Source of the DNA: an uncultured delta proteobacterium
GTDB taxonomy: Bacteria; Desulfobacterota; RBG-13-43-22
Length of the DNA: 64,000 bases
Assembly (NCBI GenBank): GCA_963843145.1
Contig: CAWJJC010000022.1
Span: forward strand, 352,001 to 416,000
Direction of reading: 5' to 3'
Position 1 is the first letter of the stretch, and each line of letters begins with the position of its first letter. The notes beneath the pieces were generated by a model that was not told the origin of the DNA, ran no database searches, and saw only the letters and a list, made by a program, of their open reading frames with translations. The position numbers and the translations under genes are program-made. Shown piece after piece: positions 29,947 through 58,516 of the stretch.

Positions 29947-30578
29947 GTGTCTGCTGTGTAAAACGTATGAGCAGTCGATTAAAGTCCGACCTTGGGAATT
30001 CATTAGCTCGCCCACGTACCTGGGGGGAGGTGTTAATGGTGGCTGGAAGGACTAAGTTCCCCGACCAAGGCTCGGAGAGGGAGCTGAGCAAACCTGTGGG
30101 TTGGAGCGCAAGCGAAGCCGGAAGTAGCCCCGAAATTTTTAAAAAGATTCAGGACATTCAGAGGAAACAATACCGGAAGGCCAAGCAGGAGAAGGAGTAC
30201 CGTTGCTATCTTCTCTATGACAAGGTGTATCGGCTGGACGTCCTGAGCCAGGCCTACCAACTGGTCAAAGCGAACAAGGGAGCGCTGGGCAAAGACGGCG
30301 AAATCTTTGAGCGCCTAGAGGAGACAGGAGGAGGAGTCGAGGAGCATCTGGAAACGATTGCCGGTGAACTTAAGCGAAAATTCTACCAGCCTCAGGCTGT
30401 CCGTGGGCTGTATATACCCAAAGCATCCGGAGGCCGACGACTGCTGGGCATCCCGCTGATCAAGGACAGGGTAGTGCAGATGGCTGTAAAAATAGCGATC
30501 GATCCGATCTTCGAAGTCGATTCTCAGGACAACTCCTACGGATTCAGGCCGGAGCGGAGTGCCCACCAAAGGCAATAA
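29947..30578 (+). mobile_element. Truncated, degenerate group II intron (RT domains 0-2 only)
   Basis: LYDKVYRLDVL..AYQLVKANKGA, Y.PQAVR..YIPK..G.RLLGIP..KDRVVQ, SYGFRP.RSAH then stop; no YADD; possible 5' end GTGTCTGCTGTGTAA. Confidence 0.82.
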
Positions 30579-57445: not shown

Positions 57446-57477
57446 TTGACTAAATAAGAAGAATGATTATCATTTCA
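57446..57477 (+). promoter_or_regulatory. sigma70 promoter overlapped by a Fur-like box
   Basis: TTGACT-16-TATCAT; palindrome AATGATTATCATT at 57462-57474. Confidence 0.55.
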
Positions 57478-57501
57478 ATAAATATGTTATTGGAGGGATA
57501 A

Positions 57502-57717
57502 ATGCCGATTTACGAATATAATTGTCTAGATTGTTCTAAGACCTTTGAAAAGATTGTTTGGAATACCGAGGAGAAAGAGGTATGTTGCCCTTATTGCCAG
57601 GGGAAAAATAACCTTCGTGTTCTTTCAGGTTTTTCCAAAGGGAGCGGGGGGATCAAAGGTATTTCGGCTGCTTCCAACTGTGGTCCCTCCAGCGGCGGGT
57701 TTTCCTGAGCCCATTAA
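57502..57717 (+). CDS. FmdB-family zinc-ribbon protein; UGA at 57706-57708 possibly Sec (ends 57708 if stop)
   Basis: MPIYEYNCLDC...CPYC...LSGF...SNCGPSSGGFS-UGA-AH-TAA; SECIS-like hairpin at 57720-57736. Confidence 0.85.
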
Positions 57718-57750
57718 ACAGGAACCGTGGGTTCCTAAGGAAAAACGACT

Positions 57751-57903
57751 ATGAAGACGGTAATTTGGATGGTGGTGATTTTTGGGGCCTGGTATTTAAT
57801 CAATCGCTGGATACTGCCTAAAATGGGGGTTCCTACCTGAATGGCCCCAAACTCCTGCCAGGTTCCTGGCCGGGACAATAAAGGGGCCGATAAACCGCTT
57901 TGA
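57751..57903 (+). CDS. Small membrane protein with in-frame UGA (candidate selenoprotein)
   Basis: AAGGA RBS; MKTVIWMVVIFGAWYLINRWILPKMGVPT-UGA-MAPNSCQVPGRDNKGADKPL*; SECIS-like hairpin at 57853-57875. Confidence 0.65.
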
Positions 57904-57919
57904 TGGATCCAGGGGGATT

Positions 57920-58516
57920 TTAGGGGGATGGTTGGGCTTGGTCCTTCTTGGGCCCCTGAGCATTGAACTCATTCATAGCCCGTTCAACGCCGTCCCGGAG
58001 TATCATTTCCAAGGCCAAGCCGGCTTCCTCCACCAGTTGTTCCATTTCCGCACGCCGGCTTGCCGGGATTGTTTCCAGCACGTATACTTCCGGCGGTTGA
58101 TCTCCGGGGGGGCGTCCTACACCCAGGCGTAGTCGGACAAAAACGTTGGTTTGCAGGTGTTCGATCAGGGAAAGGACCCCTCGGTGGCCCGCTGCTCCGC
58201 CTTTGGCTACGATCCGTATTCGGCCCCAGGCCAAATCCAAATCATCGTGGACCACCACCAACCGCTCGGGGCTGCTGTGAAAATAGCGAACCCAGTGACC
58301 GACCGCCACCCCGCTTAAATTCATATAGGTCTGGGGAAGAAGGAGGTGAACTTTATGTCCCTCAATGTTTCCCTGACCGAAAATACTTTGAAATTTTTTT
58401 TGATTTAACGAAATTCGATGATTCTGGGCCAGGGTTTCAATCACCCTGAAGCCCAGATTGTGGCGGGTAAATTGATATTTTCGACCTGGATTCCCTAAAC
58501 CGGCAATCAGGTACAC
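57920..58516 (-). CDS. pth: Peptidyl-tRNA hydrolase
   Basis: GLGNPG..Y..TRHNLGF, PQTYMNLSG, VHDDLDL, GHRGV. Confidence 0.96.
   Translation of the reverse strand: MYLIAGLGNPGRKYQFTRHNLGFRVIETLAQNHRISLNQKKFQSIFGQGNIEGHKVHLLLPQTYMNLSGVAVGHWVRYFHSSPERLVVVHDDLDLAWGRIRIVAKGGAAGHRGVLSLIEHLQTNVFVRLRLGVGRPPGDQPPEVYVLETIPASRRAEMEQLVEEAGLALEMILRDGVERAMNEFNAQGPKKDQAQPSP

Follow-up and report, generated by a model that had tools for sequence, protein, structure and literature searches.

Two adjacent candidate selenoprotein genes, an FmdB-type zinc ribbon and an unannotated membrane-anchored peptide, in a deltaproteobacterial contig

Two genes, each with an in-frame TGA and a hairpin

We analysed a 64,000-nt stretch of DNA, hereafter the window, from an uncultured delta proteobacterium (positions 352,001 to 416,000 of contig CAWJJC010000022.1, assembly GCA_963843145.1). 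Its positions 57446-57903 hold two short genes on the forward strand, and in both of them a TGA codon is followed by a hairpin resembling the bacterial selenocysteine insertion sequence (bSECIS). The upstream gene encodes a zinc ribbon, and its TGA had been proposed to specify selenocysteine (Sec, U) in a first-pass annotation made from the sequence alone. The downstream gene encodes a small peptide with a hydrophobic start. We call the candidate products FmdB-U and TM-U (Table 1).

The frame of FmdB-U opens with ATG at 57502 and runs for 68 codons to ...SNCGPSSGGFS; without read-through, the ORF spans 57502-57708. Behind the TGA come GCC, CAT and TAA (57715-57717), and the read-through product would have 71 residues and end with C60-GPSSGGFS-U69-A-H. 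The assignment to the FmdB family made in the first-pass annotation holds: the protein matches TIGR02605 (E 9.6e-14, 51.2 bits, cut-off 31.3) and PF09723 (E 1.4e-12, 47.8 bits, cut-off 34.4). The ribbon starts near Met1 and has the FmdB layout, with the knuckles C8-x2-C11 and C29-x2-C32 separated by 17 residues. A gene on the opposite strand was considered and rejected, as only unsupported ORFs of 47 and 58 codons occur there.

The hairpin of FmdB-U is exactly as first described. A spacer of 11 nt after the TGA (57709-57719, including GCC-CAT-TAA) leads to AGGAACC (57720-57726), the loop GTG (57727-57729) and GGTTCCT (57730-57736), i.e., a 7-bp stem. The reported lack of a T-tail is also correct, since the stem is directly followed by AAGGAAAAAC. 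The terminator scan found no terminator-like site at 57720-57745. With no U-run behind the stem and no hit in the scan, an intrinsic (Rho-independent) terminator was rejected. By itself, the hairpin folds with -8.3 to -9.1 kcal/mol. As only two codons follow the UGA, this SECIS-like element would be wholly untranslated.

TM-U starts fourteen bases past this hairpin, downstream of the AAGGA. Its ATG (57751) opens MKTVIWMVVIFGAWYLINRWILPKMGVPT, which is followed by the in-frame TGA, by MAPNSCQVPGRDNKGADKPL and by a TGA at 57901-57903 that we take as the true stop. The predicted product is MKTVIWMVVIFGAWYLINRWILPKMGVPT-U30-MAPNS-C36-QVPGRDNKGADKPL. It has a single hydrophobic helix at its start (a 16-residue core from the N-terminus, mean hydropathy 2.1), then the positively charged segment N-R-W-x-x-P-K-x-G, the U30-x5-C36 pair and a charged tail. 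The hairpin of TM-U has a core at 57853-57875, in which one C is bulged and the loop reads GUUC (57862-57865), and a lower stem in which 57843-57848 pair with 57883-57888. Its fold has -25.2 kcal/mol (z -2.5), with -11.7 kcal/mol for the core and -23.7 kcal/mol for the extended form. A simple scan records it with 5 bp and a loop from 21 nt, against 9 pairs and 24 nt in the fold.

Both hairpins fit the published bSECIS model. As summarised in PMC13188914, this model asks for a stem of 4-16 bp closing a loop of 3-9 nt with G as its first or second base, for a distance of 16-37 nt between the UGA and the loop, and for a minimum free energy of -7.5 kcal/mol or below. The respective values are loop GUG, 7 bp, 18 nt and -8.3 kcal/mol for FmdB-U, and loop GUUC, 9 pairs plus the bulged C, 24 nt and -11.7 kcal/mol for TM-U. 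No Rfam family matched either hairpin at the gathering score or at E ≤ 10.

One promoter-like site was found ahead of FmdB-U, and no terminator between the two genes. The fold of minimum energy is longer than the hairpin of FmdB-U and encloses it: UUUUCC, just ahead of the Sec-UGA, pairs with GGAAAA of the ribosome-binding site of TM-U. Given this fold, ribosomes passing from the UGA to the TAA could unmask the translation of TM-U (57700-57745). Among 14 public runs listed, one is of RNA and has a small share; the RNA contig is limited to 57870-57960, towards the convergent pth gene.

Table 1. Features of the locus, in positions of the window.
Feature	Position	Strand	Basis or remark
Promoter-like site TTGACT-16-TATCAT upstream of FmdB-U	57446..57473	+	Consensus scan, 10/12 matches; putative
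Shine-Dalgarno-like GGAGGG, 4 nt ahead of the FmdB-U ATG	57492..57497	+	Read from sequence
Candidate FmdB-type zinc-ribbon selenoprotein gene FmdB-U	57502..57717	+	71 codons plus TAA; candidate read-through translation
Sec-UGA codon 69 of FmdB-U (predicted)	57706..57708	+	TGA conservation in orthologous loci
bSECIS-like hairpin of FmdB-U, entirely 3' of the true stop	57720..57736	+	7-bp stem, loop GUG; loop from 18 nt after UGA
Shine-Dalgarno-like AAGGA of TM-U, abutting the hairpin 3' arm	57737..57741	+	Read from sequence
Unannotated gene of the 50-residue membrane-anchored candidate selenoprotein TM-U	57751..57903	+	Family TGA conservation
Sec-UGA codon 30 of TM-U (predicted)	57838..57840	+	TGA conservation across the family
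bSECIS-like hairpin of TM-U, within the coding region	57843..57888	+	Fold

Conservation of codons and hairpins, and the selenocysteine machinery

Orthologues of FmdB-U were collected by a six-frame search of 61 related genomes, after which the loci were read. We found 28 loci of the same architecture in 27 of these genomes, with 38-90% identity to the window protein. Each of the 28, picked up through protein similarity, has TGA as its first stop. Behind it come one or two codons, or seven in a single locus, and then a true stop that is TAA, TGA or TAG. The tail has the form C-x(5-8)-[FS]-[ST], with Phe in 27 of the 28 loci. The four ribbon Cys, C60 and the position of the TGA are invariant in the alignment, and a Cys stands five to eight residues ahead of U in every locus. 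The C...U tail noticed in the first-pass annotation is thus a conserved motif; the redox or metal-binding role attached to it stays inferential. Ala-Ser is the commonest tail behind the TGA, and its codons, counted over entries that were not deduplicated, vary at third positions only (GCT/GCC/GCA and TCA/TCG/TCT/TCC), as expected of translated codons.

The same loci provided 21 FmdB paralogs without Sec. These end with TGA (6), TAA (10) or TAG (5), and their tails are different and rich in Cys: CxxC-x4-CxxCH, SCxxGxCxTIDIPGPSK, or CCGSAPG...CAGPGSCCG. Deduplication of all Sec-type ribbon ORFs left 52 distinct sequences, always with TGA as first stop and with TAA (28), TGA (18) or TAG (6) as second, but 30 loci behind this count come from a pattern unable to return TAA or TAG as first stop. 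Hence, the unbiased TGA counts are those of the orthologues (28/28) and of the ribbon genes neighbouring TM-U (26/26, see below). To find Cys forms we searched about 185,000 species, represented by one genome each, for the DNA pattern C-G-P-x3-G-F-S-[TGA/TGC/TGT]-x2-T-R-R. Among its 76 matches, the 30 in ribbon ORFs all had TGA, and the 46 chance matches outside ribbon ORFs had TGA (21), TGC (18) or TGT (7). The 17 database proteins related to FmdB-U all end at the TGA or earlier, and none carries a selenoprotein name.

Two variants of the locus were observed. In two records labelled Syntrophobacteraceae/Desulforhabdus (L131, L133) the FmdB tail reads ...GPSGGFK-U-C-stop, i.e., the partner Cys comes after Sec and not before it. 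In a related strain, represented by a contig from a public DNA run that covers window positions 57684-57875, both TGAs are kept; the true stop of FmdB-U is TGA instead of TAA (57716 A>G), and 57735 C>T in the 3' arm of the hairpin yields a G-U pair.

A hairpin of 5-11 bp is present in all 28 FmdB-U loci, and its loop starts 17-24 nt past the UGA. In the mutually centred hairpins, the G on the 5' side of the loop is the sole invariant column (28/28). The alignment was centred by maximising pairing and its pair counts lean to structure: paired cells amount to 90.5%, against 62.8% in shuffled and 38-59% in slid controls, and the covariation score is 0.781 against 0.218 in shuffled alignments, with 0 of 500 shuffles reaching it. 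All seven stem pairs show changes on both sides, e.g., AGAGC/GCUCU, GUAACC/GGUUAC, CCCCG/CGGGG and GCGGCG/CGCCGC. Because of the centring bias, the same search was also run on the paralogs and on shuffled sequences. Hairpins with at least 5 bp, a G ahead of the loop centre and a loop start 17-24 nt past the stop were found in 28/28 Sec-type loci, in 1/21 non-Sec paralogs and in 117/5600 shuffles. As a positive control, we applied a generalised criterion to the canonical Sec-UGAs of the window's genome (in FdhA, SelD, HdrA-like and MvhD-like genes): it retrieved 11 of the 12, against 352 of 3000 random TGA triplets. It also retrieved both FmdB-U and TM-U of the window.

The second gene belongs to a broader family. 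In 19 aligned TM-U loci the TGA is always present, and W6, W14, R19, P23, G26, U30 and C36 are invariant. We then used two scans. The peptide pattern NR[WF][VIL][FL]PK[LMF]G[IVL], which leaves out the Sec position, found 159 stretches, of which 138 were confirmed and 80 returned; the family counts over 80 given below refer to these. In 80/80, the TGA is followed by x(3-6)-C. The DNA pattern ends with TGH, so that TGA, TGC and TGT are all permitted, and gave 90 loci. TGA was found in 90/90, with a Cys four to eight residues on in 88. The residue after U is M in 70 of these loci, L in 11, I in 4, A in 4 and R in 1. The hairpin criterion retrieved 69/80 TM-U loci, compared with 689/8000 shuffled sequences, and the stem sequences are very dissimilar.

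Judging from record titles, TM-U is carried by Thermodesulfobacteriota (‘delta proteobacteria’), Desulfuromonadales and Geobacter, Spirochaetota and Leptospirales, Verrucomicrobiota, Acidobacteriota, Planctomycetota, KSB1, Cytophagia and Bacteriovoracaceae. By these labels the family spans at least eight phylum-level groups. No model of Pfam or NCBIfam matches TM-U, and a protein collection of 5.8 billion clusters held no candidate. This absence from protein records is expected if ORFs of 29 codons go uncalled. The charge of the N-terminal tip is zero or negative in 77/80 loci, and that of the segment behind the helix is +2 or more in 77/80. From the charge distribution and the established positive-inside rule we infer that the N-terminus lies outside and that Sec would sit at the cytoplasmic face of the membrane.

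The genome of the window has the machinery to insert Sec. We identified selA (609 bits), selB (369 bits) and selD (395 bits, itself with one in-frame TGA), and ARAGORN found one tRNA-Sec (selC) among 48 tRNAs. The genome is rich in selenoproteins: besides FdhA, several HdrA-like and MvhD-like genes have a single in-frame TGA in a canonical context. The conserved TGA, the covarying hairpin and this machinery, all named as checks in the first-pass annotation, support its selenocysteine reading of the apparent stop. Among the 61 relatives, 56 have selA, which leaves no contrast, and carriers from other phyla were therefore used: selA scored above the cut-off in 10/10 other-phylum genomes with one or both genes, against 1/14 model genomes. 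A reassigned genetic code was rejected, as TGA terminates other genes here, TM-U included.

One group of non-Sec FmdB paralogs, with the tail CxxC-x4-CxxCH, was observed on the same strand as selA and outside the window (G000:C28:722946-723143; also G001:C29, G003:C2, G046:C100 and G053:C27). In three genomes of the window's genus the paralog lies 4.5-4.6 kb from selA; in two genomes from other families the two genes are direct neighbours, about 40 and about 780 bases apart. This vicinity may tie the FmdB family to selenium metabolism.

Weighing the selenoprotein reading and the coupling of the two genes

We interpret positions 57446-57903 as a unit of two genes, each for a small selenoprotein whose synthesis follows the usual bacterial pathway, and assign this reading a probability of about 0.85 on the basis of sequence comparisons. 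SelB with Sec-tRNA(Sec) would be recruited to the hairpin just 3' of the UGA in each gene, and Sec is very probably inserted at both UGAs, by SelB bound to these adjacent hairpins. FmdB-U would then be a cytoplasmic zinc ribbon with a Gly/Ser/Pro-rich arm ending in C60-x8-U69-A-H, and TM-U a membrane-anchored peptide presenting U30-x5-C36 at the cytoplasmic face.

Some results weigh against this interpretation. Nearly all selenoproteins have a Cys homologue, according to a 2026 review (PMC13188914), and the expected Cys substitution was not found: no TGC or TGT occurs at the Sec position in 30 FmdB-U-type ribbon genes or in 90 TM-U loci, with patterns that allowed both codons. Without a Cys homologue at either position, the classic test by Sec/Cys pairs gives no support. 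A tail that occurs only with TGA is unusual for a selenoprotein family, and explains why FmdB-U escaped methods based on such pairs. The two codons behind the UGA of FmdB-U make for a thin coding signal, and the pairing-centred alignment leans to structure. The hairpin adjoins the ribosome-binding site of TM-U, and it is conceivable that it regulates this gene also, or instead. Finally, 11 of the 80 TM-U loci lack a hairpin by our criterion, and the codon after the UGA of TM-U is AUG in 70 of 90 loci.

The TGA of FmdB-U might be an ordinary stop with the TAA as back-up, in which case the hairpin could stabilise the mRNA, terminate transcription weakly or act as a switch by masking the ribosome-binding site of TM-U. 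The shortness of the extension agrees with this, as do the gene calls in databases, which all end at 68 residues, and the position of the hairpin, whose 3' arm abuts AAGGA and which the fold of minimum energy encloses by pairing UUUUCC with GGAAAA. Yet, an ordinary stop would not account for a first stop that is TGA in 28/28 loci when paralogs use all three stops, for a second stop that varies freely, or for Ala-Ser codons that differ at third positions only. The hairpin, its compensatory changes and its loop G also persist in loci without the membrane gene behind (L020, L037, L038, L041, L044, L066-L069), no U-tail follows it, and its geometry matches that of 11/12 true Sec sites of the host genome. 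We consider an ordinary stop very improbable. We give slightly lower odds still to a recoding of the UGAs to something other than Sec (near-cognate read-through, Trp or Cys), or to the UGA-AUG of TM-U being a stop-start junction between micro-ORFs of 29 and 20 codons. The AUGs after the UGA leave a stop-start open at those 70 loci, and 15 more have Leu or Ile codons that are possible starts; the remaining 5 of the 90 have Ala or Arg codons, which do not start translation. Such a junction would tolerate TAA or TAG, yet the codon-blind search found TGA in 80/80. In addition, 69/80 TM-U loci have a SECIS-like hairpin at the right distance, selA is present in all 10 of the other-phylum carriers tested, and TGA is the normal stop of other genes in these genomes, the true stop of TM-U included.

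If both products are selenoproteins, they may still act independently, with their adjacency an inherited synteny devoid of functional coupling. We hold this to be a serious possibility, somewhat short of even odds, and set the chance that FmdB-U and TM-U work together, from gene order and sequence, at not quite even. TM-U lies behind 17/18 family-level FmdB-U loci and beside two more distant ones. Its DNA motif occurs in 17 of the 61 relatives (18 sites, against 0 for a reversed control pattern), and all 17 also have FmdB-U. In the broader family, a ribbon gene lies in the 1.5-kb flanks of TM-U at 26 of the 80 loci. These neighbours are on the same strand in 26/26 cases, 16 upstream and 10 downstream of TM-U, and all 26 are Sec-type although the genomes hold several non-Sec FmdB paralogs. 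The adjacency recurs, beyond the window's lineage, in records labelled KSB1, Acidobacteriota, Cytophagia and Syntrophobacteraceae/Desulforhabdus. The occurrence of both gene orders, always on one strand, and of the Sec-type neighbour only speaks against mere synteny. Other observations speak against coupling. At the remaining 54 TM-U loci, a ribbon gene is absent within 1.5 kb and the neighbours are heterogeneous: MerR-type regulators (four), a histidine kinase and a phospholipase-D-type gene (Desulfuromonadales), Lon (spirochaetes) and lgt (Geobacter), in a scan of 114 of the 157 flanking ORFs, which did not extend to the nine closest relatives or to some of the loci already known to have FmdB. 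Searching five distant TM-U genomes with the 68-residue FmdB ORF gave a Sec-type tail in two and none in the other three. About 8 to 10 of the relatives bearing FmdB-U lack the TM-U motif.

Some neighbouring genes deserve mention. Four Desulfobacterales-type records (L098, L111, L116 and L148) have a gene for a MerR-family regulator immediately ahead of TM-U and in the same orientation; downstream, three of them (L098, L116 and L148) have a small GTPase gene on the opposite strand. In L041, FmdB-U is directly followed by a thioredoxin-like ORF with WCGPC, and a pyridine-nucleotide disulfide oxidoreductase (L150:1908-3110) follows the TM-U/FmdB-U pair in a Cytophagia record. The latter two are weak hints of redox chemistry.

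Should the two proteins act jointly, their tails would offer two soft ligands each, compared to four Cys in the non-Sec paralogs, and in mirrored order (C...U and U...C). Given this arrangement, we think that the likeliest chemistries are a selenylsulfide/diselenide relay and a shared Se2S2 metal site, and make no choice between the two. Even granting joint action, it is rather unlikely that the mirrored pairs serve selenol/thiol exchange or the joint binding of a soft metal. A more specific proposal, which we consider unlikely, is that the two proteins together form a selenium centre on the cytoplasmic side of the membrane. In it, a selenylsulfide or diselenide would be exchanged between the mirrored arms C-x(5-8)-U and U-x(4-6)-C, or the arms would jointly hold a soft metal at an Se2S2 site of four ligands, in place of the four-Cys tail of the paralogs (CxxC-x4-CxxCH). 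TM-U would in that case be the first obligately Sec-containing, membrane-anchored family of bacterial microproteins without a known Cys form, and a functional analogue of the eukaryotic SELENOK and SELENOS.

Elsewhere in the window, positions 1-4048 hold an ordinary rRNA operon (the end of the 16S rRNA, tRNA-Ile, tRNA-Ala, 23S and 5S rRNA), and positions 29972-30111 match domains D1-D4 of group II introns in Rfam (RF02003, 51.8 bits).

Comparison with known selenoproteins

Catalogues of selenoproteins have mostly been built from Sec/Cys pairs and from called ORFs, and both genes slip through. FmdB-U escapes because only two codons follow its UGA, TM-U because the 29 codons before its UGA are never called, and neither has a Cys form. 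Table 1 of PMC13188914, with 119 families, lists no FmdB family with C-terminal Sec and none resembling TM-U. Both families are uncatalogued as judged from this table, literature searches, the NCBIfam and Pfam scans and the protein search; Haft and Gwadz 2023, Haft and Tolstoy 2025 and the BSepDB family table lie beyond this coverage and could list either. If our interpretation is correct, the database entries of the FmdB-U subgroup are two to three residues short and lack their probable active residue, and annotation misses an entire family of membrane microproteins found in records of at least eight phylum-level groups. Sec-only families are rare, and these two would argue that selenium is indispensable to their chemistry. 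The recurrent pairing with TM-U would also give a first entry point to the role of FmdB, a large and uncharacterised family. The prediction can be tested in culture, as a Desulforhabdus isolate record (L133) carries the adjacent pair.

FmdB has been described before as a predicted selenoprotein family (Zhang and Gladyshev 2008, PMC2398784): two Global Ocean Sampling sequences have Sec within a CxxC knuckle, and 807 Cys homologues are listed. The entries on FmdB in later reviews give TIGR02605 and the motif U/CxxU or UxxU (PMC9312934, PMC13188914). Those proteins and FmdB-U are alike in being small members of TIGR02605/PF09723 that were predicted from an in-frame TGA and a bSECIS. They differ in the place of Sec, which substitutes a knuckle Cys in the marine sequences, whereas FmdB-U has four invariant knuckle Cys and its Sec three residues from the C-terminus. 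Cys homologues also abound in that family, and none was found for the tail of FmdB-U.

According to the first-pass annotation, the essential stem of E. coli fdhF also begins 11 nt downstream of the UGA. The elements described here share with the fdhF type and with the bSECISearch model as outlined in the literature a stem-loop 3' of the UGA, with a G (then U or G) opening a small apical loop at 16-37 nt. A bSECIS typically lies within the coding region, as stated in PMC13188914, whereas that of FmdB-U would be wholly untranslated. In this respect the closest parallels are families with C-terminal Sec, i.e., UXX-star 1 and 2 (NF041114, NF041211), KCU-star (NF033934) and SaoC (NF040734), as given in Table 1 of the same review. 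They are likewise small proteins of anaerobes, with Sec, two residues and a stop, so that the SECIS necessarily lies behind the true stop. By the descriptions given there, their folds are different, glutaredoxin-like or other. In an hmmscan of FmdB-U against NCBIfam, no UXX-star, KCU-star or SaoC model matched at E ≤ 1, and the NF041211 matches of the host genome lie on other contigs than FmdB-U. Two small frames of this genome, with one in-frame TGA each (G000:C32:53520-53711 and G000:C28:314356-314553), match the UXX-star model NF041211 below threshold and are possible further unannotated selenoproteins.

Eukaryotes offer analogies of a functional kind. Thioredoxin reductase (-GCUG) has its Sec near the end of a Gly-rich disordered arm with a Cys nearby, and SELENOK and SELENOS are small membrane proteins with a single helix and a cytosolic Sec tail. 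FmdB-U and TM-U may work like these proteins, to which they have no sequence relation, and which depend on another type of SECIS and on other machinery. The recoding mechanism proposed here is standard. What is new is an uncatalogued, Sec-only subgroup of FmdB and, frequently as its genomic neighbour, a family of membrane microproteins that likewise occurs only with Sec and has escaped annotation.

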